Origin: Treponema sp.
GTDB taxonomy: Bacteria; Spirochaetota; Spirochaetia; Treponematales; Breznakiellaceae
Assembly (NCBI GenBank): GCA_031265435.1
Contig: JAISCR010000023.1
Coordinates: 8,799 to 72,798, forward strand
Reading direction: 5' to 3'
DNA length: 64,000 nt
This document shows, in pieces, positions 20,940 through 52,238 of the stretch; the first letter of the stretch is position 1, and each line of letters opens with the position of its first letter. The position numbers and the translations under genes were made by a program. The notes under the pieces were generated by a model that was not told the origin of the DNA, did not search any database, and saw only the letters and a list, made by a program, of their open reading frames with translations.

Positions 20940-23900
20940 TTACAAATCATTTTTTGCAATTCTTTTTTCAAACAAAATAAACAGCGCCGGCACCAGGGTA
21001 ATGGAACAGATAAATGAAGAGAGCACACCCCAGAAAATAACCAGCGACAGGATCTGTACCAAATTCCCCGGTTCTCCGGCGCTGAAAAACAGGGGGAATG
21101 CTCCGGCCATGGTGGTACCGGCGGTGGCTAAAAGGAGCGGCGACTTTGATCTGAGGATAAAGTACATGCCCGTGGAAGAAAGCCGCTTCCCGCGGGGCAG
21201 GGAAGCCAGGGCGTCCGCGACAAGAACCGCGGCATTCACCGCGACTCCCGACAGCGCTATAAATGATGCGGCCGCCGCTTCATTCAGCGGCTTCCCGAGG
21301 ATCAGGAGAATCAATAACGGCAATGCCAGGGAAGGAGGAATCACCGGCAGGATGACAAACGGAGCCTTGAGGGACTCGCTGGACGCGGCTATGACCATGG
21401 AACAGAAAAGCAGGGCAAGAAGAAACCACAGTATCGTCCCGGAAAGATTTTCAGCCTGTTTTATGGCATCCTGATCGAAGACAATGCTGTAAGCGGGAGG
21501 AAGTTCCATTCTATCGAAGAGAGGCATGATCGACTTCCGCAGCCGCCTCGGATCAAGCGGCCCCGTGCGGATCGTAAATGAAGCGCTGCGGCGTCTTCCC
21601 TGCCTTTCAATGGCGCTGCCTTCCCGGCTTTCTGTAACCTTCATGAGAGAATCAACCCTGACCGGGTATGCATCTTTAAGTGTCAGCGGAATGGAAAAGA
21701 CTTTTTCTTTGTCCGGAATACCGGCTCCCAGGACACGGACGTCTACCTCTCCGGAATCCTCAAGACGTTTATAGGCGACAGGACCGTGAACATTCCGGCG
21801 TATCGTGTCCGCCGCAGGATAGAACCACGCTCCGGCTTCACGGAAACGTTCCCTGTCGGGGTAAAGATCGATACGGCCGCCGCCGTCTTTGAAGTTGAGT
21901 ACCGTTTCTCTTACGAGTCCCGACGATGCCGAAAGCCCGGCGGCCTCACGGGCAAATTTTCTGCAGAGGGATGAATCGTCCCCGAAGACACTGATAGTCC
22001 AGTTCCTTTCCCCGCTTCCTGTTTCCGGAAAATAGATAAAGGCCCCGTTTATACCGATGCGTCTGATTTCCTTCTTTAAGTCTTCAGGTTTTTCCTTTTC
22101 AGGATCAAAATTGATGAGCAGGGAACCCGAACCGGAACGGGCGGAACTCTGAATATGTTTTACCGCGGAATTTTCTTTCAGCTTCACGGAAAATATTCCC
22201 ATGAGTCTGTCCGCTTCTTCCGCGCGGAAACCCCCTTCAAATTCTATATGGGCATAGATGGAACCGGGACTTTCATTTCCCCCCGGATCAGGCCGGATGA
22301 ATCCAAGGGCCAGTATGCCGCCCCCGCTGAGTATCAAGGCCGCGGCAACATAAAGCACGGGAAACCGCAGTACCAATCCTGAGGAAAAAGCCAGCGCTCT
22401 TAAACTTCTGCGTTTTATAAAACGGAGGAACGCTAAAAGTTTTTGTCGTACAGGCAGAGCCATACCCCGTCCCCGGGAATGACGGGAATCATTGTTCAGG
22501 ATTCCGCGATGAGACGCGGCAGCCTCTCCGTGCTTTCCGCCCCTGAATATGAATGGAGGCAGAATACTGAAAGAGGCAAGCAGGGCGATAAGTGTGACCG
22601 TTCCGGATCCCCAGGCAAGAGTTCTGCACTCTTCACCGATATCCATAAGGACAAGGGGTATGAGTGCGGCGATTGTAGTACATGATGATGAAATGAGCGG
22701 AGGCGCCAGGGAACCCAGTACCCTTAAACCTTCCGCCGCCGTTTCCGCTCTCCTCAGTTCCCACGCAAGTATGATGACCGCGTCAACTGCCGCCCCAAGT
22801 CCTGATGCTATGCCCGAGAGGAGAGGTCTGTCCGGAGAAAAGCCAAAGAAAACGAGGAGGCCCAAAGAAAAAACAGAGATGAGGGGCACGGAAAGAAAAA
22901 CCGCCGGAGATACTTTTCCTCCGGGCATCATAAGAAAAGTCATCAATGAAACCGCCAGGGCTCCCTCAAGGGCCGCCAGTATAAGGGATCTGAAAGCCTT
23001 CGTTTCCTCCTCTCCCCGATCGAGCAATACCTGAAAATCAAGAGGCAGATCTTTAATGGCTTCCAGTTCCCTCTTTATTTCACGGGAAAGTTTACCGAGC
23101 TTCGCCCCCGACGCGGGCATGATCATGATGCCTGCGGCCCTCTCTCCGTCGAGCCTGGAATAATTATCAGGTTCCCTTTCTCCTTCACGGATCTCCGCGA
23201 TATCTTCAAGATTGATACGGACTCCATTGATATCGAAAGACGCTTTTTTGAGGTCTTCAAGTTTACGGTAACGGCCGTCAAGAACCAGAAGGGTCTTGCG
23301 GTTTTCGCTTTCAATCCGGCCTGCGGGCAGAATGAGATCGCTGCCGGCAAGGGAAGACGCCAGATCCAGGGGTCTGATTCCCAGGGACGCGGAACGTTCG
23401 GGATCCAGGGCGACACGGATCTCCCGGTTCGCGATTCCCGAAAGCTCCACTTCCCCGGCTCCGGCAAGGGCTTCAAAGCGCGGTTTTACAAAACGTTCAA
23501 GCGTTTCGGATAGGTTTCCGTTATTCGTTCCCGCTTCCCCGCGTGAAAACACAGCCGCGGACCAGACGGGAATACGCGAGTTGCTTGACGAAAGGATCTC
23601 GGGCCGCTGTACCGATCTGGGCAAAGTTTCATACACTTCTTCTACCGCATCCCGGACAGCCTCATAACGCCCGTAAGAAGCAAAGTCAGGATCGAAGCGA
23701 AGGAAGGCCCTCACTCTTCCGTTTTCACTGGTACTGGTAATATGGAGAAGTCCCGGCAGAGGCGCCAGGGCATCCTCCAGAGGAATGGCGATGCTTCGTT
23801 CCATTTCCTCCGCGTCGACTCCGTAGTGTCTGAAGGTGAGGGTGTAGGAAGAGGCGTCGTATTCCTTCCGGTTATCCCTCATGGCAAGAAGGGCAACGGA

Positions 23901-23969
23901 AACGGAGGCGGCCATCATCAGGATACAGAAGGCGGCATGTTTTCTTTCAAGCCAGGAATTTGTTTTCAC
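20940..23969 (-). CDS. RND efflux permease (AcrB-like), paralog 2
   Basis: 1,009 aa. An N-terminal TM helix, then a large soluble loop, then TM clusters in a duplicated RND layout. The GTG start abuts the stop of the upstream RND gene. Confidence 0.88.
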   Translation of the reverse strand: MKTNSWLERKHAAFCILMMAASVSVALLAMRDNRKEYDASSYTLTFRHYGVDAEEMERSIAIPLEDALAPLPGLLHITSTSENGRVRAFLRFDPDFASYGRYEAVRDAVEEVYETLPRSVQRPEILSSSNSRIPVWSAAVFSRGEAGTNNGNLSETLERFVKPRFEALAGAGEVELSGIANREIRVALDPERSASLGIRPLDLASSLAGSDLILPAGRIESENRKTLLVLDGRYRKLEDLKKASFDINGVRINLEDIAEIREGEREPDNYSRLDGERAAGIMIMPASGAKLGKLSREIKRELEAIKDLPLDFQVLLDRGEEETKAFRSLILAALEGALAVSLMTFLMMPGGKVSPAVFLSVPLISVFSLGLLVFFGFSPDRPLLSGIASGLGAAVDAVIILAWELRRAETAAEGLRVLGSLAPPLISSSCTTIAALIPLVLMDIGEECRTLAWGSGTVTLIALLASFSILPPFIFRGGKHGEAAASHRGILNNDSRHSRGRGMALPVRQKLLAFLRFIKRRSLRALAFSSGLVLRFPVLYVAAALILSGGGILALGFIRPDPGGNESPGSIYAHIEFEGGFRAEEADRLMGIFSVKLKENSAVKHIQSSARSGSGSLLINFDPEKEKPEDLKKEIRRIGINGAFIYFPETGSGERNWTISVFGDDSSLCRKFAREAAGLSASSGLVRETVLNFKDGGGRIDLYPDRERFREAGAWFYPAADTIRRNVHGPVAYKRLEDSGEVDVRVLGAGIPDKEKVFSIPLTLKDAYPVRVDSLMKVTESREGSAIERQGRRRSASFTIRTGPLDPRRLRKSIMPLFDRMELPPAYSIVFDQDAIKQAENLSGTILWFLLALLFCSMVIAASSESLKAPFVILPVIPPSLALPLLILLILGKPLNEAAAASFIALSGVAVNAAVLVADALASLPRGKRLSSTGMYFILRSKSPLLLATAGTTMAGAFPLFFSAGEPGNLVQILSLVIFWGVLSSFICSITLVPALFILFEKRIAKNDL

Positions 23970-26900
23970 TTAAATCTTTCTCCTGACAAGAACGCTTAAT
24001 ACATGCGGCATGACAAACAGGCACAGTAAAGTGGAGGCGGTGATTCCGCCCAGCATGGCCGCGGCCATGGATCGCTGGGAAGCCCCCATGGGAAAACAGA
24101 CCATGGGCAGAAGCGCAAAGACTGTAGTTATAGTGGTGATCGATATTGCCCGGAAACGCTCAACGGCGCCGTTCCGGAAAGCTTCTTCGGCCCGCATGAT
24201 TCCGTCCAGCTTTTCCATGCCTATCTCGTAAAGGATGATGGCATTATTTACCGACAAACCAAAAAGCACCGCGAGGCCGAGGACGGCTCCCGAATCGATA
24301 GAAGCGCCGCTTAAAAAAAGAGCCGGGCCTGCTCCCGCCAGCGAAAAAGGAATGCTGAACATAAGAACAAGCGGAAGGAAGAATGATTCAAATTGCGCGC
24401 CCATCACCAGATAGAGAAGGAGGATCACCAGGACAAGTGTGATGATAAGGCTCTGCCTGTAGCGGGTAAAAACCGACTCATCGGAACGGATCAAATTCCA
24501 CGCGCCTCCGGATTTTAAGAGGTCATTCATAACATTTCCCGGAGCGTCTTTAACGCTTACATACACCACATCGGAGCGGTTGAGCCTTGAGAGAGTTTCC
24601 GGGGATTCAAGGCGCTCTATCCTGCAGAGGCTTCCCAGAAACGCGGAGTTTCCTTCCCCGAGGGCTATGGGGATATTTTGGAGAGAAGCCGCGGCGCCCA
24701 GAGGATCATCTTCCATCTTTCCTTTGAGTCTTACCGGTATGGGTCTTCCGCCGCCTTCAAGCTGTCCTGTTGTCATGCCGTCCGTGATCGAATGGAGGAG
24801 TCCCGCCAAATCCGCCGCCTGTATGCCAAGCTGCGCGGAAGCTTCGCGGTCAGGATAGATACGGAATTCCGGCCTTGAATGGGAGGGGTCAAGAATTATT
24901 TCCGTTCCTTCCCCAAGTTTTTCCCTGAGAAAGCCGGCCAGTTCCTTTGCCCTGAGCATTGTCTCTTCGGGGTTTCTTCCCCGGACTGCCATGACTCTGG
25001 ATTCGGAAAGACCCAGCAGTTTTTCTACGTTGTTCTGCGGGAAAAATACATTGATTTCCCCTTCGGAATAGTTTTCAAGAAGCCGCCTGACTTCATCCCT
25101 GGCTTCCTGACTCTTTGTTCCGGGACTGATAGAGCAGTGGAAGATCAACTCCTCTTCACGGTAGCCGCTTTCCGAAAGACGCATCAGGTCTTCGTCCTCG
25201 GCGCCCGCGTAGGCAAAGACTCCGCGGATACCGGGAAGTCCGCCGAGAAGCAGCGTCAGTTTCCTGCCTTTTTCCGGCATGGATTCAAGCATATAACCCG
25301 GCGGAAAGAGAACCGAAAGACGCAGTTCCCTTTCTTCATCAGGACTCACAAAGTGGCGGGGCCTTGAAACAAGGATAAAAATACCGGCGCCGACCAGCAG
25401 GGCGGCAAGAAGAATCATGCGTAAAAAATTTGAAGTTGCCAGACGAAGGAATTTTTCGTAGAATTCTTCAAGCCTCCTGGAAGAAGTGTCCCCGCAGGTT
25501 TTGAAACAGAGCCTGTAAAGTGAAGGGAGACAGAACTGCGCATAGATCCATCCTGCCGTGATGGAAACCACCAGAGCTATGGACAGATCCCCAAACAGCG
25601 CTCCCAGGGGGCCGGGAAGAAAAAGAATGGGCACAAAGACTACGGCGGTGGTAAGAAGGGAAGCGGCCCCCGACAGCATTACTGTTGACGCGGCTTCTCC
25701 TGTCTCCCCGGCCGAAGGGGCGGCGGCATTGGTTCCGAAACGCCGGTGGAGTACCTCAAGAACGATGACGGCCGAATCGGAAACCAGGCCTATTCCCAGG
25801 GCAAGGCCTCCAAGGCTCATGCTGTTCAGGGAAGTTCCCCGGACGGCAATGGCGCATAAACCCGCTGCGGTTGAAACCGGTATCGCAAGTGCGGCCAGAA
25901 AACTGGAACGCGGATGCCGGATAAAAAAACAAAGGGAGAAAACTACCGCGAAAACCCCAAGGGCGGCGGAGACAAGCAGATTATTCAATGCCCCCGAAAT
26001 GAGGGAAGATGAATCATACACCAGAAAAAATTCCCCGTCATCCCCGAAATTTTCTCTTGCCTCTTCCAGCAGCTTTCCGATTTCCCCGGAGAGACGTGAA
26101 GGATCCGAGCCGGGACGGCGGTATATCTTGAGAGCGGCGGCTTCTTCTCCGTTCAGGATAAAGAGGCTCTTCTTTTCCGCCTTTCTCAGGGAAACGGCGG
26201 CGGCATCGGAGAGCCTAAAAGGTCCTCCCGCGCCCGAAAGACTTAAGGAAGCCAATTCTTCCGCGGAACCGGGCTGGCCCGAAGAAACCACTACCAGTTC
26301 CCTGTCTCCTTCCCTTGCCATCCCCGCGGGCATATTCATTGTCTCCGAAGAGAGCAATTCCGCCAAAGAGGAAACGGTGATTCCCCGGACGGCAAGCTGT
26401 CTCACATCCGCCTCTACCAGTTCTTCCATTTCATCCCCGCCGAGCAGTATCACCTGTCCTATGCCTCCAAGCCGTCTCAACCGTGCCTTGAGTTCATACT
26501 CCGCAAGATTCCTGGCGAAGTTACCGTCTCCATGACGGCTTTGGACAGCGATGATGCAGAACGGTTCATTTTCGACAGTGCCGGAAGAAACCGCGGGCTT
26601 ATCCACTCCCTCAGGCAGGGAAGGCCACACCGCGTCCACCGCTTCACGGACAAGAACCGCCGCCGCGGCTCCGTCAATACCCCAGCGGAAATCAAGAATG
26701 ATAAGGGAAAAGTTATCCCGCGATACACTCCTCATGTTCTCAAGGCCTTTAACCGGGGAGAGGGCATCTTCGACAGGAATAGTGAGAAGGGATCGGATCT
26801 CCTGCGCCCCCATTCCCGGCCAGGATGTTTTCACCGTGACCCGGTTAAGCGCAAGGCCGGGAAGCTGTTCAAGGGGCAGCCCTGAGGCGAAAAAAACCGC

Positions 26901-26975
26901 GGCAACGAGAAGAGCGCAGAGCATCATAATAACTGCCACAGGCCGGCCCGCAAAGGCGCTTATCAATCCCTTCAT
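23970..26975 (-). CDS. RND efflux permease (AcrB-like), paralog 1
   Basis: 1,001 aa. RND layout. The TM4-like segment GIGLVSDSAVIVLE is comparable to AcrB GLLVDDAIVVVE. Confidence 0.9.
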   Translation of the reverse strand: MKGLISAFAGRPVAVIMMLCALLVAAVFFASGLPLEQLPGLALNRVTVKTSWPGMGAQEIRSLLTIPVEDALSPVKGLENMRSVSRDNFSLIILDFRWGIDGAAAAVLVREAVDAVWPSLPEGVDKPAVSSGTVENEPFCIIAVQSRHGDGNFARNLAEYELKARLRRLGGIGQVILLGGDEMEELVEADVRQLAVRGITVSSLAELLSSETMNMPAGMAREGDRELVVVSSGQPGSAEELASLSLSGAGGPFRLSDAAAVSLRKAEKKSLFILNGEEAAALKIYRRPGSDPSRLSGEIGKLLEEARENFGDDGEFFLVYDSSSLISGALNNLLVSAALGVFAVVFSLCFFIRHPRSSFLAALAIPVSTAAGLCAIAVRGTSLNSMSLGGLALGIGLVSDSAVIVLEVLHRRFGTNAAAPSAGETGEAASTVMLSGAASLLTTAVVFVPILFLPGPLGALFGDLSIALVVSITAGWIYAQFCLPSLYRLCFKTCGDTSSRRLEEFYEKFLRLATSNFLRMILLAALLVGAGIFILVSRPRHFVSPDEERELRLSVLFPPGYMLESMPEKGRKLTLLLGGLPGIRGVFAYAGAEDEDLMRLSESGYREEELIFHCSISPGTKSQEARDEVRRLLENYSEGEINVFFPQNNVEKLLGLSESRVMAVRGRNPEETMLRAKELAGFLREKLGEGTEIILDPSHSRPEFRIYPDREASAQLGIQAADLAGLLHSITDGMTTGQLEGGGRPIPVRLKGKMEDDPLGAAASLQNIPIALGEGNSAFLGSLCRIERLESPETLSRLNRSDVVYVSVKDAPGNVMNDLLKSGGAWNLIRSDESVFTRYRQSLIITLVLVILLLYLVMGAQFESFFLPLVLMFSIPFSLAGAGPALFLSGASIDSGAVLGLAVLFGLSVNNAIILYEIGMEKLDGIMRAEEAFRNGAVERFRAISITTITTVFALLPMVCFPMGASQRSMAAAMLGGITASTLLCLFVMPHVLSVLVRRKI

Positions 26976-40624: not shown

Positions 40625-41908
40625 ATGGCGAGTGTACAGACTTTATCTAAACCCGTCGATAACGACATGATTATACCGGTATCCGAACGGGAATATTTGC
40701 GTACCCTGGCAAAGAAGCAGCAAGAATACGCGCATCTGCCTGTAATGGCCGAACGGGAACATTTATGGGTTTTGCATAACGGCCTTCGCGGTAAACGGCC
40801 GATGGTAGTAATGGAAGAAGATACCTTTCTCAACGAAATTTTGCCGTTAAGCCGTTGTGAAAGTCCACTGGGGAAAAAAATTGAACAGACATTATGCCAT
40901 ATTATCGCTTCCTATGAAACCTTTGACGATGACAAGGTAGTACCGGGCTGCTTTCCGGTTTATTTGGACATTGGCGTTAATTTTCTGGGATTAACCATAC
41001 AGAAAACCCTTGCCGCTGAAGGTGTCGGCTTTCATATTGAACCGGCGTTTAAGACATTGGAGGAAGGGCTTCCCCTTCTGCGGCATTCAGAGTTTATGTA
41101 TGATAAAGCGGCGACTGAACTGATGGAAAAAGCGGCCTGTGATATTTTGGGTGATATACTGCCTGTAGTACGCAAAAACAGCTTCCATTGGTGGGATACC
41201 ATGCATACCTGGCAGGTGGTACACCTTATGGGTATGGAAAATATGTACATCGCCATGGCCCTTCAACCGGATAACTTTCACCGCCTGATGCGTATAGTTA
41301 CCGATGAATTGATGCTTTGTCTGCACTGGCAAGAGGAAAACGGGCTGCTCTTGCTAAATAACGGCAACGATTATTTGGGCGCCGGCAGTTTCTGTTTTAC
41401 CGATGAATTACCGGGAACGGGTTTCAACGGCCAAGTACGCGTTCGGGATACATGGGGACATTTGAACAGCCAGGAGAGTGTCGGCATATCCCCTGAAATG
41501 TTTGCGGAATTCATCTATCCCTATTGCGCGGAAATCGCTGCGGAATATGGGCTGGTCTATTACGGATGCTGCGAACCGGTGCATAAAACCTGGGACATCT
41601 GTTTAAGCAAACTGCCAAATTTACGCAAAGTATCAATATCAGCGTGGTGTGACGAAGAAATTATGAGCGAACGCCTTCAGGACGGAAAGATTATCTACTC
41701 CCGAAAGCCATCGCCTCAATTTATCGGGGTAAAAGCCGCGTTTGATGAAGAAGCATTTACCGCTTATATTAAGAAGACAGCATCACTGCTTCGCGGTGGC
41801 TGCAAGGCCGAGTTCATATTCCGGGATATATACAAATTAAACGGAAACGTGGAAAAGCTCCGCCGCGCGGTGGATATCACCCGGAGGATTGCGGAAGATG
41901 TTTACTAA
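40625..41908 (+). CDS. hypothetical enzyme, possibly a URO-D-like TIM-barrel fold
   Basis: 427-aa ORF with host-like GC. It shares a C-terminal pattern with the next gene (IS.E.F.E...P ... LP.L). The fold assignment is a guess. Confidence 0.55.
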   Translation: MASVQTLSKPVDNDMIIPVSEREYLRTLAKKQQEYAHLPVMAEREHLWVLHNGLRGKRPMVVMEEDTFLNEILPLSRCESPLGKKIEQTLCHIIASYETFDDDKVVPGCFPVYLDIGVNFLGLTIQKTLAAEGVGFHIEPAFKTLEEGLPLLRHSEFMYDKAATELMEKAACDILGDILPVVRKNSFHWWDTMHTWQVVHLMGMENMYIAMALQPDNFHRLMRIVTDELMLCLHWQEENGLLLLNNGNDYLGAGSFCFTDELPGTGFNGQVRVRDTWGHLNSQESVGISPEMFAEFIYPYCAEIAAEYGLVYYGCCEPVHKTWDICLSKLPNLRKVSISAWCDEEIMSERLQDGKIIYSRKPSPQFIGVKAAFDEEAFTAYIKKTASLLRGGCKAEFIFRDIYKLNGNVEKLRRAVDITRRIAEDVY

Positions 41909-41947: not shown

Positions 41948-43054
41948 ATGAATGAATGTCTGAAACAAGCCGGTGCGGGGACAATCAAAATAGAATTCAA
42001 GCCCGATCTGGAAAAATGCCTTGAGCGTGTTTACGCGTGGTTCGAGGGTGAACTGATCGACCGCCCGCCGGTGCGTTTTTCCCGGCACAACGCCGAGTAC
42101 GAAACCGCCGACAATTCAGACCGCGCATGGGCTTCCCTCAAAGACCGCTGGTTTGACGCGGAGTACCAGGTGGAAAAATTTATCCGCGAGGCGGAGGGAA
42201 AGAGATTCCTCGCGGAAACATTTCCGGTGTACTGGCCGGGCCTGGGCCCCAATGTATTTGGTGCGTGTTACGGCTGTCCCTATGTTTTCGGGGAGGTAAC
42301 GGCCTGGATGGAACCTATGCTGGAAGAACTCCCCGCCGCCGCGGATCTTCCGGTTTTCGACTGGAACTGCGAATACTTCAAAAAGCTGGACGAGATGACC
42401 GGCCTGGCCCTGGACAAGGCCCCGGGTCGCTTCCTCGTTGGTTACACCGACATACACCCCGGCATGGACTGGTGTGCGGCCCTGCGCGGAACAGAGGCCC
42501 TGCTGATGGATCTTTACGATGACCCGGAATCACTGCGTGTTTTTTGCGGCGCGTCCCTGGAAGATTTTTTAAAGTTCTTTGACTATTTTGATGCCAGGCT
42601 CAAAGAACGGCGTCAGCTTTCGGTTACCTGGATGAACATCCCCTCTTTCGGGAAGCTGCATATTCCCAGCTGTGATTTTGCCAGCATGATCTCCTGCGAA
42701 CAGTTTGAAGAATACGCCATGCCATGCCTGGAGCAGGAATGCCTGCACATGGATCACAATATCTTCCACCTGGACGGAAAGGGAGTGGCCCGGCACCTGG
42801 ACCGGATACTCACCCTGCCGAAACTCAACGCGATTCAGTGGGTGCAGGGCGTGGGGGAAGACCAGCCGATAATGCAGTGGGTACCGCTTGTCAGGAAAAT
42901 CCAGAATGCCGGGAAAGGGGTAGTAGTTGATGTCGCGATCGGGGAACTGGAGTCCTTTATCGCGGAAGTTCCGCCCAGAGGGATCTACCTGTGCATATCG
43001 GCCGGAAGCCCGGAAGAGGAAGAAGCCGTATTAAAGCGCATCGAAAGGTGGTAA
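41948..43054 (+). CDS. hypothetical enzyme, distant paralog of the preceding gene
   Basis: 368-aa ORF. Contains IFHLDGKGVARHLDRILTLPKLNAIQW. The fold assignment is a guess. Confidence 0.55.
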   Translation: MNECLKQAGAGTIKIEFKPDLEKCLERVYAWFEGELIDRPPVRFSRHNAEYETADNSDRAWASLKDRWFDAEYQVEKFIREAEGKRFLAETFPVYWPGLGPNVFGACYGCPYVFGEVTAWMEPMLEELPAAADLPVFDWNCEYFKKLDEMTGLALDKAPGRFLVGYTDIHPGMDWCAALRGTEALLMDLYDDPESLRVFCGASLEDFLKFFDYFDARLKERRQLSVTWMNIPSFGKLHIPSCDFASMISCEQFEEYAMPCLEQECLHMDHNIFHLDGKGVARHLDRILTLPKLNAIQWVQGVGEDQPIMQWVPLVRKIQNAGKGVVVDVAIGELESFIAEVPPRGIYLCISAGSPEEEEAVLKRIERW

Positions 43055-43132
43055 ATTTCACCGGTTGGACTTTGTGGTTAAAAAATCTTCACAAGGCCGA
43101 CAGACACCCCCGCATCAACTCTAAATATAAGT

Positions 43133-43162
43133 GTTGCAATTTGCAACAAGTTGTGCTATTCT
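43133..43162 (+). promoter_or_regulatory. perfect palindrome overlapping a putative promoter of the ParD-like gene
   Basis: GTTGCAA-T-TTGCAAC (43133-43147). TTGCAA (43134-43139), a 17-nt spacer, then TATTCT (43157-43162). GGAG SD at 43173-43176. Confidence 0.35.
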
Positions 43163-43182
43163 TTGATGAATAGGAGACTGAA

Positions 43183-43407
43183 ATGACTACTGCCGTAAGA
43201 TTGCCGGTTGAAATGATAGAAGATGCCCGTAAAAATGGTGAATTACATTGCCGTTCTACCCCTAAACAAATCGAATACTGGTACAGATTGGGCAAAATTG
43301 CCGAAGAAAATCCGGATATTTCCATGGATTTCATTAAAAATTCAATAGAAGGGCTTGATGCGATAAAAAATGGAGATACTGAACCTTTCAAGTTCAGGAA
43401 TCCCTGA
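43183..43407 (+). CDS. ParD-like type II antitoxin (orphan)
   Basis: 74 aa. KQIEYWYRLGKIAEENPDISMDFIK resembles the ParD_like family motif (QIEHWA.IGK.AEENPDL) as I recall it. Confidence 0.6.
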   Translation: MTTAVRLPVEMIEDARKNGELHCRSTPKQIEYWYRLGKIAEENPDISMDFIKNSIEGLDAIKNGDTEPFKFRNP

Positions 43408-43546
43408 TGAAAATAAACCAGTAGTGAATATAAGGTAAAATTATCAGGCAGGCAGTAAAATGGACGATTTGCGGCAAAGAAGTCTGGATTTAACTGCGCA
43501 ATGTGGCGAGAATTGATCCGGAAAAAGAAATTATGAGGGTACAAAT

Positions 43547-44806
43547 ATGTTAAAGAGATTGACCATTAAAAATTTCAAAGCCATTCAGGATATGACGATA
43601 GAGTTTACCCCGTTGACCGTGCTGATCGGAGGTAACGGCTGCGGGAAAAGTACGGTTTTACAGGCATTGGATTTTTTACGTTCTGCAGCAATACGCGATA
43701 TACCAGTGTATTTGGAAATGCATAAATGGACTATCGCGGAGTTAAAATCAAAATTAAATGATGGACAAAATAAACCTATTGAATTTATTTCGTCGTTTGT
43801 ATTTTCAGAAAACGTAGTAGACTGGTATTTTATTGTGGATTTCACGGAAGACAAGTGGTCGGTTCGGGAACTGTTTTGTGTGAACGGAAAGGGAGTAATA
43901 TCTTATCGAACTATGCCGAATATATTTGATGGCATGGCTATTCCTGAAATTCCCCAGCCATTTGTAAACATTACGCTTTCATCATCCACGTTAAAGGTAA
44001 TAGATGATTACCTTGAACAAATGGATTTTGGAAAAAATGAAATTTACGAATTACAGAAATATTTAAAACAGTCGTCGTTCCTGGACGTGCTTTCGCCGGA
44101 AACGATTCGCGGTTTCAGCGCAAATCAGCGCATTACAAGAATAGGGTATAAGGGAGAGAATTTAAAATCTTTTATTCATAGTTTAGATGATACAAGTAAA
44201 AATGAACTAAATAAAATTATCTCGGAAATTATAGGATTTCAGATCACAGTAATGACATTTAGTACCGGCGAAGGTATAACAATGGAATTGGAAATTCATC
44301 ATGAAAAAGAAACCATCAAAATTGATTCCCTGCATATTAGTGATGGTTTGCTTCGAATTATTGTATTTGCTGCAATTAAGATGGAAAGGCTTATTCTTCG
44401 ATATGGAAAATCTGACGGCGGCATTCAAATAAAAGCTGATGGCAAATATTCCTATAAAGGCTGGACTGAATGTGAATGCGGTTTTATTCTTATTGATGAA
44501 ATAGAGAACGGGGTAAATCCGTATATTACTGAAAAAATTATTACCCTTCTACGTGATATAACCAATACTCAGGGCCGTCAAATTATCTTTACAACCCATA
44601 GTCCCGTTATTTTAAATGATATTAATCCTGATTATATTAATTTGCTTTGGAAAGACAAGTCTGGTTCGGTCTATTGCCGGAAACTTTTTTCCATTTCCGA
44701 ATTATACGATTCTCTTGATTTTTTGAGTCCCGGTGACGCCTGGATGAATATCCGGGAGGAAGATCTTTTGGCAAAAGCAAGTTCTGAACCGGAGGACAAA
44801 GAATGA
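43547..44806 (+). CDS. ABC-type / AAA_21-AAA_15-like ATPase (OLD/SMC-like N-terminus)
   Basis: 419 aa. MLKRLTIKNFKAI, Walker A GGNGCGKST (residues 28-36), HISDGLLR signature-like motif (263-270), Walker B FILIDEIE (313-320), TTHSP (349-353). GAGGG SD. Confidence 0.85.
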   Translation: MLKRLTIKNFKAIQDMTIEFTPLTVLIGGNGCGKSTVLQALDFLRSAAIRDIPVYLEMHKWTIAELKSKLNDGQNKPIEFISSFVFSENVVDWYFIVDFTEDKWSVRELFCVNGKGVISYRTMPNIFDGMAIPEIPQPFVNITLSSSTLKVIDDYLEQMDFGKNEIYELQKYLKQSSFLDVLSPETIRGFSANQRITRIGYKGENLKSFIHSLDDTSKNELNKIISEIIGFQITVMTFSTGEGITMELEIHHEKETIKIDSLHISDGLLRIIVFAAIKMERLILRYGKSDGGIQIKADGKYSYKGWTECECGFILIDEIENGVNPYITEKIITLLRDITNTQGRQIIFTTHSPVILNDINPDYINLLWKDKSGSVYCRKLFSISELYDSLDFLSPGDAWMNIREEDLLAKASSEPEDKE

Positions 44807-45489
44807 TCGCTGTTTTGCTTTGCTGCGAAGGACCTGACGATCAAGGTAGAAAAAAATATATTGACGGTGAATATATACAGTCTGACGGCGTTATGCAGAT
44901 TTTGATAAAAAAAACCTCGGGCCGCAATGATTTAAATTTTGTAGTCAAGCAAAGGCAGGACTTAAAAGCAATTTCCATACGAAAGAAGTATTTGAATAAA
45001 CAACAAATGACTTCCCTCCGTTTGGCGCGGCTGGCTCAAAAAGAAAAATGTACTCATATAGCCTACCACCGGGACGAAGATAATAAGGGACTTGGTGAAA
45101 TGTACGATCAGGTTAAAGGATATTTTAAGGATGCAGAAGCCAATAAGACTTCTTGCCTTGCCATCGTTCCTCAGCACATGACGGAAAGCTGGCTTTTAAG
45201 TGATAAAAATGCTTTTAAGCAAGTATTTGGGGAAATACCTGCAAAACCGGCGGCTTTGCCGCCAAAGCCGGAAGAAACATGGGGCAATAAAGGAACAGAC
45301 AAGCACCCCAAAAGGTATCTTGAACGGGTTTTGGCGCAGTATCATCACACAACGGTTTCTTCTGAAATTTACGCGGAAATTGCAGAGAACTCTGATATTG
45401 ACGTACTGCGAGAGCGCTGCCGCGAAAGCTTTGACAAAAAATTCTACACCGATATGCAGTCTTTCATTACCACGGAGACCGCTCCATGA
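44803..45489 (+). CDS. DUF4276 / Toprim-like protein (putative nuclease partner)
   Basis: 228 aa. ATGA overlap with the ATPase gene. CCEGPDD (E9), HRDEDN (D91-x-D93) and MTESWLL (E128) form a Glu...DxD...Glu pattern. Confidence 0.65.
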   Translation: MIAVLLCCEGPDDQGRKKYIDGEYIQSDGVMQILIKKTSGRNDLNFVVKQRQDLKAISIRKKYLNKQQMTSLRLARLAQKEKCTHIAYHRDEDNKGLGEMYDQVKGYFKDAEANKTSCLAIVPQHMTESWLLSDKNAFKQVFGEIPAKPAALPPKPEETWGNKGTDKHPKRYLERVLAQYHHTTVSSEIYAEIAENSDIDVLRERCRESFDKKFYTDMQSFITTETAP

Positions 45490-45613
45490 AAAAGAACGGC
45501 TCTTTCAAGTCCATTGTCCCAAAACCTGTAACCGTTTACAATAAGAGCCTGTCCGTAAAGTAACCGGCTTTATAGACAGATATAGATACAAACCTTGACA
45601 CAAGGAGAACGCC

Positions 45614-46495
45614 ATGCAGGTTTTGAAAACCCCGCGTCCCGGGGAAGACCGGGGAGTATACAGCATTCTGGAAACAATGGATGTGGATTCGGGAAAACGT
45701 ACTGTGCTGAGGGAATTCGACGATACTGTCGAAGCTCCCAACTGGACACAGGACGGGCAGTATCTCATCTTCAACCGGAACGGAAGAATCTACCGCTACG
45801 AGCTTGCAGGCGGAACCATCACGGAGATCTACACCGGCGTCTGTACCGCGTGTAACAACGATCATGTCCTCTCCCCGGATGGTTCTTCGATTGCGATGAG
45901 TCACAACACCGTCGAAGACGGTCAGAGCCGGATCTACAAGACCCTCCTTTCAGGCGGAGAACCTGTGCTTGTCACTCCCATCGCTCCGAGCTACCTTCAC
46001 GGCTGGAGTCCCGACGGCAGGACTTTTGCGTACTGTGCGGAACGGAACGGGCAGTTTGACATTTACACGATTCCCGTGTGGGGCGGCCGGGAAAAACAGC
46101 TTACCGATACCAAAGGTCTCGACGACGGGCCGGAATACTCCCCCGACGGCAGACACATCTGGTTCAATTCAACCCGCTCATCCCTCATGCAGCTCTGGCG
46201 AATGGAAGCCGACGGTTCCAACCCAACCCGGATGACCTTTGACGAAAGCAACAACTGGTTTGCCCATGTATCGCCGGACGGTCGGCGGGTCGCCTTCATC
46301 TCCTACAAAAAAGGTGATGTTGAACCGGACAATCATCCGCCCAACAGGAACGTGCAGCTTCGTCTCATGAACGCCAATGGCGGAGATTTCCGGGTAATAG
46401 CTGAACTTTTCGGGGGCCAGGGTACAATCAATGTCAATTCATGGGCGCCGGACAGCAGGCAGATCGCCTTCGTGTCCTACAGGCTGAAAAAATAG
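45614..46495 (+). CDS. TolB-like beta-propeller protein (PD40/WD40-like repeats), no signal peptide
   Basis: 293 aa. Repeated SPDG motifs ([45 protein letters not shown]). AAGGAG SD. Confidence 0.8.
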
Positions 46496-46533
46496 GAAGC
46501 CGATTTCTCACCCGGCCTGCTGAACCGAAAGCC

Positions 46534-47250
46534 TTACTTTTGTCCGTAGCTGGCGTTGGGGCCGTGTTTGCGCTCCCAGTGCTTGCGGATGATGTGTTCG
46601 GGCAGGGTCTCCGCGTCCGGCTTCAGGGTCAGTGTCAAAAGGGCCATCCTGCAGACTTCTTCCAGAACCGCGGCATGGTAAATCGCCTGCATGGCGTTTT
46701 TTCCCCAGGTAAAGGGGCCGTGGCCTGCCACCAGTACCATTGCCATGTGCGCAGGATCGATGTTTTTCCTGCGAAAGGTTTCTACAATCAGATTCCCTGT
46801 CTCAAGTTCATAATTGTTTTTCACCGCTTCTTCACTCATCACGGGAGTGCAGGGTATCTCCTCCGCTCCATGATCCGCGTGGGTCGTGCCGAAAACCGGT
46901 ACGGAAAGCCGGGCCTGGGCCCAGGCTGCCGCGTGGGTGGAGTGGGTGTGTACAATTCCTCCCAGGCCCTCAAAATCCCGGAAGAGAACCCGGTGGGTTT
47001 CCGTATCGGAAGAGGGGTTGAGCTTCCCCTCCACTACCCGGCCTTCAAGATCAACTACCACGAGATCCTCAGATTTCAGATCTCCGTAGGCAATGCCGGA
47101 CGGCTTGATCGCGAAAACGGCTTTACCGCGATCAAAGGCCGAAGCGTTACCCCAGGTGTATATGGCAAGCTTCTGCCTGGGGATCTCCATGTTGGCCTCC
47201 CAGGCTTCTTCCCGCAGTGACTTGTAATTATCCAACTGAGTTCTCCGCAA
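46534..47250 (-). CDS. araD: L-ribulose-5-phosphate 4-epimerase
   Basis: 238 aa. TWGNASAFDR, IVHTHSTHAAAW (class II aldolase metal ligands). The TTG start is uncertain and overlaps the araB 3' end by 23 nt. Confidence 0.88.
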   Translation of the reverse strand: MRRTQLDNYKSLREEAWEANMEIPRQKLAIYTWGNASAFDRGKAVFAIKPSGIAYGDLKSEDLVVVDLEGRVVEGKLNPSSDTETHRVLFRDFEGLGGIVHTHSTHAAAWAQARLSVPVFGTTHADHGAEEIPCTPVMSEEAVKNNYELETGNLIVETFRRKNIDPAHMAMVLVAGHGPFTWGKNAMQAIYHAAVLEEVCRMALLTLTLKPDAETLPEHIIRKHWERKHGPNASYGQK

Positions 47251-48907
47251 AGGCGCCCAAGGCCCGGTACTGTTTGTAAATGCCGTCGTACACTTTTACC
47301 ATTTCCTTATTTGGCTCGTAGACCTTTTCGATGGGGGAACAAAGCGCCGCCTGTGCGGAAGGAATGTCGGGGTAGAGGCCCGCGGCGGTGGCGGCAAACA
47401 TCGCCGCTCCCAGGGCCACAGCCTGATCCCCCGCGGGAACATTGATGGGCATGTTAAGCACATCGGCCAGAATCTGCATGATAAAAGGCGATTTCCGCGC
47501 CACACCGCCCACACCGATGATCCCCTCGATGGGCACTCCCTGTTCCCTGAAACATTCCACAATGGCTCTGGCGCCGAAGGCGGTCGCCTCGGCAAAGGCC
47601 CGGTAGACACGGGGAGCATCGGAACCCAGGGTAAGGCCGCAGATCGCCGCGGTAAGGTGTTGATTGGCGCCGGGTGTGCGTCTGCCGTTAAGCCAGTCCA
47701 GGGCGACAAGGCCGGTCTTACGGGGGTCGATCTTTGCGGCCTCCTCCTCAAGCCGGGGAATGATCTTCTTTGACAGTGCTGCTTTTATCTTTTCTTTTAC
47801 GGCCCCGTCGAGTCCTTCAACTTCATCGAGCAGAGTTTCCGCGGGCCATGAAACAAGCTTCTTGAACCATGCATACACGTCCCCGAAGGAGCTCTGGCCC
47901 GCTTCGTACCCCAGAAGCCCCGGCAGCACCGAACCGTCAACCTGACCGCAGATACCTGCTACAAGCTGTTCCGGCCCCGAAGGTTTCGGCCCCACGGTTA
48001 CATCGCAGGTGGAAGTTCCCATAACCCGGATAAGCCAGCCCGGCTTTACACCGCCGCCCACCGCGCCCATGTGGGCATCGTAGGCCCCCACCGCCACGGG
48101 AATGCCGCCGGGAATGCCGAGCCTTTCGGCCCATTCGGCGCAGAGAAAACCGGCGGCCTTGTCGCTTGTCCAGGTTTCCATTCCCAGGCTTTGGCGGATC
48201 TTCACCAGCCGGGGATCGAGCCGGGAGAGAAAGCCCTCAGCCGGATAGCCGCCGTAACTTTCATGCCACATGGCCTTGTGGCCCATGGCGCAGCGGCTCC
48301 GCTTGATTGCGCACAATCCCTTGCCGCCGGAGAGGAGCAGGGTCATCCAGTCGCAGTGTTCCACAAAGGTAGCGGCGGCTTCCGCCACTTTTTCATCAAC
48401 GCTTAATATATGAAGAATCTTGGCCCAGAACCATTCGGCGGAATACGTACCCCCCTCGTACTGGGTAAAATCAATGCCGCCCCAGGTTTTGGCGGCCTTG
48501 TTGATCCTGTCGGCTTCGGCAAGGGCGGTATGATCTTTCCAAAGCACAAACATTGCGTTAGGATTTTCGGCGAATTCCTGCCTCATCGCCAGGGGAAGAC
48601 CATCGTTATCCGCGGCGCAGGGGGTGGAACCGGTGGTATCAATGGCAATGCCCTTTACCCTGGCGGCGACCTCTTTCCCCGCCTGGGCGACAGCCTCCCT
48701 CACCGTCCCTTCGAGCACGTCGATATAGTCCTGAGGATGCTGCCTGAACTGGTTTGCCGCCGGATCGCAGTAAAGCCCCCTGGCCCAGCGGGGGTAATCC
48801 ATCACCGAACCGCCGGCCTGCTCTCCTGTTGCCGCATCGATCAATACTGCCCGGGCCGAATCGGAACCATAGTCCAATCCCAGTACATAGGCCTCACCCT
48901 TTATCAT
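47228..48907 (-). CDS. araB: ribulokinase (FGGY family)
   Basis: 559 aa. VLGLDYGSDSARAV N-terminal motif. Length and layout are typical of AraB. Confidence 0.88.
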   Translation of the reverse strand: MIKGEAYVLGLDYGSDSARAVLIDAATGEQAGGSVMDYPRWARGLYCDPAANQFRQHPQDYIDVLEGTVREAVAQAGKEVAARVKGIAIDTTGSTPCAADNDGLPLAMRQEFAENPNAMFVLWKDHTALAEADRINKAAKTWGGIDFTQYEGGTYSAEWFWAKILHILSVDEKVAEAAATFVEHCDWMTLLLSGGKGLCAIKRSRCAMGHKAMWHESYGGYPAEGFLSRLDPRLVKIRQSLGMETWTSDKAAGFLCAEWAERLGIPGGIPVAVGAYDAHMGAVGGGVKPGWLIRVMGTSTCDVTVGPKPSGPEQLVAGICGQVDGSVLPGLLGYEAGQSSFGDVYAWFKKLVSWPAETLLDEVEGLDGAVKEKIKAALSKKIIPRLEEEAAKIDPRKTGLVALDWLNGRRTPGANQHLTAAICGLTLGSDAPRVYRAFAEATAFGARAIVECFREQGVPIEGIIGVGGVARKSPFIMQILADVLNMPINVPAGDQAVALGAAMFAATAAGLYPDIPSAQAALCSPIEKVYEPNKEMVKVYDGIYKQYRALGAFAENSVG

Positions 48908-48925
48908 GATAATCCTCCGCGTACT

Positions 48926-50476
<1,551 letters not shown>

Positions 50477-50746
50477 TCAAGTCGCAAACCATTTGTCTCC
50501 TTCCGGGTGGGGACAGTACGAAACACGGGGCAGGGCCCGGAACTGGACAAAGCATCCGCAGTGGGCGCACAGGATCCCTTCCCTCAGGCAGGCGCATGAG
50601 GAGCAGACCGCAAGCCTCCGCTCATATACATGTTCTTCCACCCGCAGTCCCTCCGCGACAGGAGCCTCACGCGCCAGACGCAGGGCCTCCTCGGCGGAAG
50701 GCAGCGCCGCCCCGCGTCCGCAATGCGGACAGCCTTCCCTATCCAA
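50477..50746 (-). CDS. small Cys-rich protein, DUF6171-like
   Basis: 89 aa with a non-ATG (TTG) start. CPHC ... VCSSCAC ... [13 protein letters not shown] ... YCPH ... KW. The pattern matches what I recall of DUF6171. Confidence 0.5.
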
Positions 50747-52238
50747 GTTCCACAGTCACCACCGACTTTGCGGGCAGCATTACCGTTACGCCGCCCTTTA
50801 CACACCGGGCCCCCGCAAAGGAAGAACATCTTACCGTATCCGCCCTCTCGAACGTATTGTGATCCTGCATGTGTGCGGAACCCACAATCTGCCCGCTTAC
50901 CGATTTGAAGTCAATGCCGCGGATTTCGATTTTTACTTCCTTTTCCAGTTTCGGATCGATGTTGGTCAGAGACACATGGATCTTCTCGTCATCATCGACA
51001 GACGCGCAGGCGGTGACCGCGGGAATGGAACCGAAGCCCAACTGGATATTCTCCGATTCCACATGGACGGGGAGCTTTACCGCGTCCTGATGCACCTTGT
51101 ACATATCAAACACATGCCATGTGGGAGTCAGCAGCATCTTTGCGCCTTCGGTAAGGATGACCGACTGCAGTACATTGATCGTCTGGGCGATGTTGGCCAT
51201 CTGCACCCTTTCCGCATGGTTATTGAAGATATTGAAGTGAATCCCCGCCACCAGCGCGTCACGGAGACTCGACTGCTGGTAGAGGAAACCGGGATTGGTT
51301 CCCGGCTCCACATCGAACCAGGTTCCCCACTCATCCACCACGAGTCCCACCTTCCGCTTCGGATCGCAGGTATCCATTATATCACTGTGCCTTTGTATCA
51401 GTTCTTCCATAACATAGGCCTTGCGCATGGTGATAAGCCATTCGGCCTCGCCGAATTCGGTTGAGGAACCCTTGTGGGCCCATTCACCGGGCACGGTATA
51501 GTAATGGAGCGAAAGTCCGTCCAAAAGATTACCGCGTTCGCCGCAGGTTTTTTCCATTACCACCTTTGTCCAGTTATAATTACTGTCATTGGGGCCGCAG
51601 GCGATCTTGTAAACGGGCTTGCCGTAATCGCGGACATACACCGCATAGCGGCGGTAATTGTCCGCATAGAATTCCGGCGTCATGTTGCCGCCGCAGCCCC
51701 AGCTTTCGTTGCCTATGCCCCAGAATTTTACATTCCAGGGTTCGGCCCTGCCGTTCCTTGTGCGAAGGTCCGCCATGGGGCTTACTCCGTCAAAGTTGCA
51801 GTACTCCACCCACTGAGAGAGTTCCTGCACGGTGCCGGAACCAATATTCCCGCAAATATACGGCTCGCAGGGTTCACCCGGAGATGACAGCATCTCACAG
51901 AGATCCAGAAATTCATGAGTACCAAAACTGTTGTCTTCGGTAACCCCGCCCCAATGGGTGTTGATCATCCTGGGCCTCTCCTGCCGGGGGCCGATGCCGT
52001 CTTTCCAGTGGTACTCGTCGGCAAAACAGCCGCCCGGCCAGCGGAGGTTGGGAATCCTGATTTTTTTCAGGGCCTCCACAACATCCTTGCGTATACCCCG
52101 CACATTGGGAACCGGTGAATCTTCCCCCACCCAGTAACCGCCGTAGATACAACGGCCCAGATGCTCGGAAAAATGCCCGTAGATATGACGGTTAATTTTT
52201 ACACTGCCGGCGGCGGCATTGACAGCGATTCTGTTCAT
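50739..52238 (-). CDS. alpha-L-arabinofuranosidase, GH51 (paralog 2)
   Basis: The start at MNRIAVN (52238) abuts the upstream stop. [46 protein letters not shown]. Confidence 0.92.

Follow-up and report, generated by a model that had tools for sequence, protein, structure and literature searches.

The ATPase/DUF4276 pair and its catalogued relatives

Two overlapping genes in a 64-kb stretch of Treponema sp. DNA raise the question of whether an ATP-binding cassette (ABC) ATPase and its small partner protein form a defence module, to which known type they belong and whether they act on their own. The whole stretch is called the window here, and coordinates are positions in the window unless another locus is named. 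An earlier note on this DNA had pointed to two co-directional genes with a 4-nt ATGA stop/start overlap and had taken them for an uncharacterised module. The open reading frames (ORFs) and their overlap on the same strand (44803-44806) were confirmed, while the label "uncharacterised" had to be given up, as PADLOC already lists HEC-01 as well as PDC-M25, and HEC-01 was phage-tested twice. With moderate confidence, the locus is read here as a stand-alone HEC-01/PDC-M25 pair that once lay between the HmaA and HmaB genes of an Hma system; in this pair, an ABC ATPase switch would control a probable Toprim-like, metal-dependent nuclease with a predicted role in defence. The two genes are:

43547..44806, + strand: gene 1, a 419-aa ABC-type (SMC/Rad50/OLD/PtuA-like) ATPase of the PDC-M25A / HEC-01A family (Pfam, PADLOC-DB, Foldseek)
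44803..45489, + strand: gene 2, a 228-aa DUF4276 protein of the HEC-01B / PDC-M25B family, putative metal-dependent Toprim-like nuclease (Pfam, PADLOC-DB)

The PADLOC assignments reported here are based on scores of PADLOC-DB models combined with gene adjacency. Gene 1 matched PDC-M25A best (5.7e-67, 224 bits), with residues 1-413 aligned to positions 1-371 of the 380-position profile, followed by PDC-M07A (about 1e-30) and HEC-01A (1.4e-29, 101 bits) and, at lower scores, by AbiLi (3.7e-28), AriA (~1e-27), NsnB, mad3, GajA, PtuA and Old. Gene 2 matched HEC-01B with 8.2e-13 (46.6 bits) and PDC-M25B with 2.6e-5 (22.3 bits). The window thus carries adjacent HEC-01A- and HEC-01B-matching genes with a 4-nt overlap, and likewise a PDC-M25 pair, in which the A subunit is matched over its full length and the B subunit weakly. 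The two families overlap: 86 of the 94 gene 2 relatives were matched by HEC-01B and 83 by PDC-M25B.

HEC-01 (Hma-embedded candidate 01) was described as an ABC ATPase together with a TOPRIM-like protein encoded inside Hma systems, with a conserved OLD-type metal site in HEC-01B (Payne et al., bioRxiv 10.1101/2024.01.29.577857). The PDC families including PDC-M25 were proposed in the same study as candidates from their embedding in BREX, DISARM and type I restriction-modification (RM) systems, and non-embedded HEC-01 homologues are counted by PADLOC as well. In a cold-seep defensome survey (10.1101/2024.09.26.614923), the 12 system types of highest abundance included the HEC-01/PDC-M25 pair type. 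The pair type is thus already catalogued, with MAD3/MAD4 as relatives and with two published tests that conflict. What is new here are the Hma relic arms of the window copy, the lack of linkage to its ParD-like neighbour and the mosaic ATPase; these observations sharpen experiments without establishing a new category.

Both window proteins match the HEC-01 models, and homologues of 33-65% identity lie between hmaA and hmaB. The difference is that the window copy stands alone, with relics as all that remains of an Hma context, and its moderate scores (101 and 46.6 bits) place it in a divergent, mostly metagenomic subfamily. PDC-M25 provides the best PADLOC match of gene 1, but gene 2 reached its 2.6e-5 only.

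Remnants of an Hma system beside the pair

In the Hma-embedded loci, hmaA ends 10-15 nt before the start of the ATPase gene and its stop codon overlaps a GAGGG motif, while the stop of the DUF4276 gene overlaps the start codon of hmaB, which encodes a DUF1156 methylase (ccATGAaaaagaaactcatcgaagta, MKKKLIEVALPLEAIN). The motif tgAGGGta upstream of the ATPase gene is kept in both embedded and stand-alone loci. An nhmmer profile was built from the last 150 nt ahead of the ATPase start codon of six Hma-embedded loci. It matched the window directly upstream of gene 1, and also the same position (E=0.0014) in the near-identical locus L001, whose gene pair is 96-98% identical. The window relic still encodes the ..RSLDL.. 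and ..EKEI.. of the helicase C-terminus. The features concerned are:

43468..43542, + strand: 3' relic of hmaA (SNF2/NOV_C-type helicase), directly upstream of gene 1, out of frame, with three 5-nt gaps (nhmmer E=0.0015)
43535..43539, + strand: Shine-Dalgarno-like GAGGG, 7 nt ahead of the gene 1 ATG (sequence reading)
44791..44806, + strand: translational coupling signal, GGAGGA (44791-44796) in the end of gene 1, 6 nt before the gene 2 start, then ATGA (44803-44806)
45484..45496, + strand: possible start relic of hmaB (methylase), CCATGAAAAAGAA, its ATG overlapping the gene 2 stop as in embedded loci; 13 nt shared, then divergence

The hmaB start relic of the window is weak on its own, and longer degenerate hmaB start relics were found in L013 (nhmmer E=3.4e-4) and L042. 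A 25-aa ORF that begins at 45486 after gene 2 was considered as a gene and rejected, since neither L001 (52 aa) nor L010 has it in conserved form; it was reread as the hmaB start relic. With relics of the hmaA 3' end and of the hmaB start on its two sides, the window pair appears to descend from an Hma-embedded cassette and to be an orphan of Hma, a larger methylation-based helicase/methylase defence system.

In L010, a bona fide Hma locus with HmaA (1460 bits), HmaB (1132 bits) and HmaC, an ATPase/DUF4276 pair lies between hmaA and hmaB. At 9041-12615 of L010, between hmaB and hmaC, there is in addition a complete Gabija system (GajA 1.3e-146, GajB 5.3e-208), so that this one Hma locus holds two embedded systems. 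In L066, two different ATPase/DUF4276 pairs are arranged in tandem between hmaA and hmaB, each after an hmaA 3' fragment. Between both pairs (7476-8039 of L066) lies a 187-aa ORF with an HmaB-like start (MTKKLIEA) followed by the last ~125 residues of the HmaA of the same locus; it looks like the expected leftover of cassette exchange or tandem insertion through hmaA-3' and hmaB-5' arms.

An ABC-type ATPase with a putative Toprim-like partner

The N-terminus of gene 1 reads MLKRLTIKNFKAI. All motifs that had been read from the sequence before were present and were invariant in an alignment of 33 homologues (41-82% identity):

43628..43654, + strand: Walker A / P-loop, residues G28-T36, GGNGCGKST with K34; G28, N30, G33, K34 and T36 invariant in the 33 homologues
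44333-44356, + strand: signature-like HISDGLLR, from H263, 229 aa past K34
44495-44500, + strand: Walker B, ..LIDEIE, D317/E318
44591-44605, + strand: H-loop TTHSP, residues 349-353

Apart from the P-loop positions, the invariant residues were H263, G267, D317, E318, E320, N324 and T349-P353. The Pfam search proposed in the earlier note gave AAA_21 (1.8e-25) and AAA_15 (2.4e-23) for gene 1 and DUF4276 for gene 2. When the AlphaFold model of gene 1 (pLDDT, the predicted local distance difference test, 78) was compared with the Protein Data Bank (PDB) by Foldseek, PtuA, an SMC head, Rad50 and OLD 6p74 (the Thermus OLD nuclease) were matched at E 1e-11 to 1e-9. PtuA was the closest solved structure (E 1e-11, template modelling (TM) score about 0.4-0.47), and AriA was not in the top 50 matches. 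Sequence matches to solved structures covered the conserved ends only. With its motifs in ABC order and an ABC head fold, gene 1 belongs to the ABC-type AAA_15/AAA_21 (OLD/PtuA/AriA-like) ATPases.

Gene 2 exceeded the gathering cutoff of Pfam DUF4276 (PF14103; 34.4 bits against 30.2, E 3.3e-8), and all 28 close homologues matched this family as well. Its Glu...DxD...Glu arrangement, already pointed out before, was found to be conserved across the family, with E9, D91 and E128 invariant and D93 at least 90% conserved both in the 28 close homologues and in 94 diverse relatives (22-97% identity). This far exceeds chance. W130, E157 and P169 were likewise invariant over the 94 relatives. The positions are:

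44827-44829, + strand: E9 of gene 2
45073-45075, + strand: D91 of gene 2
45079-45081, + strand: D93 of gene 2
45184-45186, + strand: E128 of gene 2

In the structural model of gene 2 (pLDDT 91.9), E9 follows strand 1 (E2-8), H89-x-D91-x-D93 follows strand 3 (E85-89) and E128 follows strand 4 (E117-121), while the C-terminal half is helical. The predicted order corresponds to the Toprim arrangement, in which strand 1 of a four-stranded alpha/beta core is followed by a conserved Glu and strand 3 by DxD. DUF4276 was also placed in the Toprim superfamily with Glu and DxD residues in the literature, with Mad4 named as a homologue (PMC12065111). Motif geometry, predicted secondary structure and these reports support a Toprim-like nuclease, with no significant fold match. 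Thus, the DUF4276 assignment of the earlier note holds and the motif order fits its proposed Toprim fold, but neither Foldseek nor hhalign provided a significant Toprim match.

Comparison with known ABC ATPase systems

The general class had been recognised correctly by the earlier note, namely an ABC ATPase of the AAA_15/AAA_21 type with a Toprim-type DUF4276 partner, similar to OLD and PARIS. MADS3-4 and AbiL were grouped with PARIS, OLD and Gabija as ABC ATPase and TOPRIM systems (PMC11464382). MAD3/MAD4 resemble the window pair in that an AAA_15/21 ATPase and a DUF4276 protein are paired within a methylation-based system. They differ in that the NCBIfam equivalogs stayed far under their cut-offs (MAD3, NF047739, 68.1 vs 420; MAD4, NF047734, 24.5 vs 160). 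No other mad genes were found nearby, and no methylase or helicase in the window. The window pair is related to MAD3/MAD4 and not orthologous.

PARIS shares the separate genes for an ABC ATPase and for a Toprim-type effector, with AriA models matched by gene 1, and plausibly the same logic of a sensor ATPase that would hold and then release a nuclease. The partner in the window is, however, a DUF4276 protein and not DUF4435/AriB, for which no hit was obtained in PADLOC or Pfam. OLD and Gabija GajA have in common with the window pair an AAA_15/21-type ABC head, an E...DxD...E order collinear with the OLD-type Toprim and the structural match to OLD 6p74. ATPase and Toprim are fused there, whereas the window has two genes, and the profile-profile similarity was not significant. 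The gene pair had neither a PF20469 match nor an adjacent UvrD-type gene (GajB) and was not assigned to OLD or Gabija. PtuA of Septu and retrons, to which the gene 1 model came closest among solved structures, has an HNH nuclease (PtuB) as partner, which is lacking here. AbiLi was matched by gene 1, but gene 2 had no AbiLii hit, so that the pair was not assigned to AbiL either.

Distribution and neighbourhoods

The DUF4276-like family is of moderate size: a threshold of E<=1e-3 gave 1019 clusters among 1.84 billion representatives, and one of E<=1e-10 gave 282. Close relatives came mostly from metagenomes and metagenome-assembled genomes (MAGs) and belonged to Treponema, Chitinispirillales and several Bacillota lineages; judged from sample and MAG names, the source metagenomes are probably from termite gut. 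A pattern scan of 185,579 species genomes returned five loci only. Relatives of gene 2 were absent from the mobile-element sets searched, namely IMG/VR (pattern scan), PLSDB plasmids and INPHARED phages (tblastn) and PHROGs.

Loci were counted over 60 distinct loci. The ATPase gene was located directly upstream of the DUF4276 gene on the same strand in all 55 testable ones, which makes the pairing obligate, and the 4-nt overlap recurs in most homologous pairs. The status of the 60 loci was as follows:

Hma-embedded: 11 (12 with L022)
Non-embedded (flanks of 300 nt or more on each side): 20
Undetermined: 29

Among the neighbours of stand-alone pairs were Dam and N6_N4 methylases with an SF1 helicase, SIR2_2, Cas10, a CARF protein and a reverse transcriptase. 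Other stand-alone pairs adjoin ordinary genes, or a transposase together with type IV secretion system (T4SS) genes. Such surroundings agree with an accessory module associated with defence, and not with a core gene. The neighbourhood count that the earlier note had proposed thus revealed accessory, patchily distributed pairs, often in defence loci, with neighbours that vary from locus to locus.

A mosaic ATPase gene

Comparison of the window with the related loci L065 and L066 divided the ATPase gene into parts of different history. DNA identity to L066 was 84-93% over 43700-44599 and 46-65% past 44600, while L065 was 39-67% identical over 43700-44599 and 86-93% over 44600-45300. The breakpoints lie near 43700 (aa ~52) and near 44600, at the H-loop, and delimit two parts:

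43700..44599, + strand: central module of the ATPase, ~aa 52-351, with the insert domain, HISDGLLR and Walker B; assorts independently (DNA identities vs L065, L066)
44591..44803, + strand: H-loop and 71-aa C-terminal tail of the ATPase, residues 349-419; travels with the DUF4276 gene

The same division was found among the proteins, given as identities to the window:

P0058: body 93%, tail 41%
P0059 (L066): body 88%, tail 51%, DUF4276 partner 40%
P0064 (L065): body 50%, tail 94%, DUF4276 partner 89%
P0071: body 46%, tail 94%

The partners predicted from the tails were checked on the contigs, and that of P0064 was close and that of P0059 distant, as expected. Over 16 pairs, tail identity correlated with the identity of the DUF4276 partner (Spearman 0.73, p=0.0014), body identity did not to a significant extent (Spearman 0.38, p=0.15). 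A first test of tail against partner among the metagenome loci had given no signal because close relatives were lacking there. Judged by these identities, the ATPase gene is a recombinant mosaic, with the central ~300 residues as one unit and the P-loop end, the tail and the DUF4276 gene as another. The central module is a candidate for the part that recognises the trigger, and the tail may serve as a docking element for the DUF4276 nuclease, although physical linkage alone could explain why the two travel together.

A wider scheme can be drawn from this, in which the slot between hmaA and hmaB is an exchange site. Cassettes would enter, leave and become tandem by recombination via the hmaA 3' and hmaB 5' arms, the sensor part would be shuffled apart from the unit of tail and DUF4276 effector, the tail would dock the nuclease, and escaped cassettes would work as autonomous PARIS-like sensors. 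Taken as a whole, this scheme is possible but doubtful.

Possible mechanism and dependence on Hma

Under the reading preferred here, that of a stand-alone HEC-01/PDC-M25 pair, the ATPase would dimerise or oligomerise via its ABC heads by analogy with OLD, Gabija and PARIS, and its variable central insert would sense a phage or mobile-element cue. Binding or hydrolysis of ATP would then release or activate the DUF4276 partner held via the C-terminal tail, and this partner would cut nucleic acid (DNA or RNA) with E9, D91/D93 and E128 as metal ligands. Both the defence function of the window copy and the nuclease activity of gene 2 are predicted. It is a further possibility that the pair guards Hma against phage inhibitors. 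Such guards are known from PrrC for type I RM, and PARIS senses Ocr.

Several observations weigh against this reading. The Pfam DUF4276 alignment spans residues 114-211 of gene 2 only, and the B-subunit scores in PADLOC-DB were modest. When the gene 2 model was compared with the PDB and BFVD by Foldseek, nothing matched at E<=1e-3 and the best 50 matches included no Toprim, the first of them being generic three-layer alpha/beta, flavodoxin- or Rossmann-like folds. The hhalign comparison of DUF4276 profiles with GajA-like and OLD-type Toprim domains, for which the OLD-Toprim alignment was shallow (12 sequences), was not significant (P=0.078-0.12, probability <1%); the relaxed alignment was collinear, with E9 on VEGET, DxD on DGD and E128 on IEv.Lm of the OLD-type Toprim. 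When the 28- and 94-sequence DUF4276 alignments were used as profiles against PDB sequences, nothing relevant was found, and the matches, a de novo designed protein and SgcJ among them, were at chance level. A scan for promoters and terminators around the pair did not exceed the shuffled expectation, and no promoter was identified. The selection test described below is based on 26 substitutions in all. No Hma gene was found in the window and the flanking relics are degraded, so the copy could be decaying. Finally, the HEC-01 representative of Payne et al. (10.1101/2024.01.29.577857) conferred no protection in E. coli.

In view of the last result, the module may require Hma, or else a specific trigger. 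The pair might work only in combination with an Hma or MADS-like system encoded at another place in the genome; it could, for instance, be a back-up effector that comes into play when a phage inhibits Hma. Such dependence would agree with the ancestral slot between hmaA and hmaB with start/stop overlaps with both, with the location of MAD3/MAD4 inside MADS and with the negative E. coli test of a stand-alone HEC-01. It appears somewhat unlikely in view of the 20 loci in which the pair lies far from any Hma gene, and of the cold-seep study (10.1101/2024.09.26.614923), in which E. coli B was protected by one HEC-01 representative, a cluster expressed without Hma, against one or more of the phages T7, T5 and T4.

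Probable maintenance of the window copy

A further explanation is that the pair is a non-functional leftover, that is, debris of a deleted Hma system that has not yet been disabled by mutation and lies idle in this genome. The degraded hmaA and hmaB relics on both sides, the absence of Hma genes from the window, the inactivity of HEC-01 alone in Payne et al. and the lack of a recognisable promoter would all agree with this. On the other hand, neither ORF is truncated and none of the invariant residues has been lost. Comparison of the window with L001 gave 14 non-synonymous and 12 synonymous changes, an excess of synonymous changes over the ~4:1 expected under neutrality (p=0.003; p=0.086 for gene 1 and p=0.014 for gene 2).

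The cassette (43422-45500) was also better conserved between the two loci than its flanks (45500-51500), with 98-99.6% versus 95-97.6% DNA identity. Its synonymous divergence was 0.02-0.05 versus 0.10 in flanking genes and lay below that of the neighbouring PD40 gene (Fisher p=0.0007), which suggests either constraint or an exchange more recent than that of the surroundings. The data, small as the counts are, favour a gene pair that is still maintained by selection. At least 20 related pairs stand alone, several of them within other defence neighbourhoods, and the stand-alone HEC-01 of the cold-seep study was active. An idle leftover is quite unlikely on these grounds.

The ParD-like neighbour

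The earlier note had placed the pair next to an orphan antitoxin. A ParD-like gene without a toxin is indeed present, but a link to the pair was not found:

43183..43407, + strand: 74-aa ParD-like / ribbon-helix-helix gene, outside the module (Pfam ParD_like 2.8e-12)

No toxin gene (ParE-type ORF) is adjacent to it, and it was not assigned to a ParD/ParE system. Its location 140 nt upstream on the same strand and in the same low-GC islet would allow for a three-gene addiction module of the toxin-antitoxin type, with the ParD-like protein neutralising or repressing the ATPase/DUF4276 pair. In a tblastn search of 66 related loci, however, not one carried a ParD-like homologue. L001, which shares the right flank, carries an insertion sequence (IS)-type helix-turn-helix (HTH) gene in this position instead, and its homology to the window begins at ~43422, past the ParD-like stop codon. 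Besides, the ParD-like protein matched a phage protein family over its full length (PHROG 16013, 1.1e-20). The comparative data largely refute an addiction module, which is highly improbable, and suggest that the ParD-like gene is a bystander outside the module; it was probably left behind at this variable spot by another mobile element.

A housekeeping ATPase-nuclease pair for DNA repair or chromosome maintenance of the RecF/RecN/SbcCD type deserves next to no weight: the first 45 residues of gene 1 match SMC_N, RecF, RecN and Rad50 models, but in the P-loop region only and far under the family cut-offs, the islet is low in GC, the pair is patchy over Spirochaetota, Chitinispirillales and Bacillota MAGs with five loci in 185,579 species genomes, and its neighbours vary, with many loci embedded in defence systems.

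Genomic setting

As the earlier note had described, the pair lies in a low-GC islet between sugar-metabolism genes. Guanine-cytosine (GC) content was 0.34-0.41 across ~43000-45250 vs 0.50-0.61 in the flanks. A sugar ABC transporter and a periplasmic binding protein are encoded on the left, and on the right a PD40 protein, a class II aldolase, an FGGY kinase and an alpha-L-arabinofuranosidase (arabinose-type catabolic genes). A protein 100% identical to gene 1 is on record, annotated "MAG: Treponema sp.".

At the island borders, no tRNA, no Rfam match and no convincing flanking repeats were found. An imperfect 12-nt direct repeat (CTTTCAAGTTCA at 43385-43396, CTTTCAAGTCCA at 45502-45513) brackets the cassette, its left copy lying within the ParD-like gene; it could easily have arisen by chance. 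An exact look-up of two flanking window proteins as a search for an empty site returned nothing on record, and no genome lacking the insert was found.

Other ORFs of the window were noted in passing. Two of them, 40625-41908 and 41948-43054 (+ strand, 427 and 368 aa), lie between the gene of the sugar-binding protein and the islet, had no Pfam match at E<=0.001 and probably encode uncharacterised sugar-operon enzymes. A 2972-aa ORF at 11972-20890 (- strand) had no Pfam match at E<=1e-5 and adjoins a resistance-nodulation-division (RND) efflux cluster with two AcrB-like genes (20940-26975), Big_5 proteins, an HlyD-like gene and an OEP gene up to 32823.

Implications

For annotation of this genome, the two genes are best given as a candidate pair for defence, with the ParD-like gene left out of it. 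Defence candidates of the HEC-01/PDC-M25 pair type are common, and their two phage tests conflict. Stand-alone copies that appear to descend from Hma-embedded ones raise the question whether Hma is required by the pair. The swappable central module of the ATPase is a natural candidate for trigger recognition, and the C-terminal tail, co-inherited with the putative nuclease, is a concrete target for interaction mapping.

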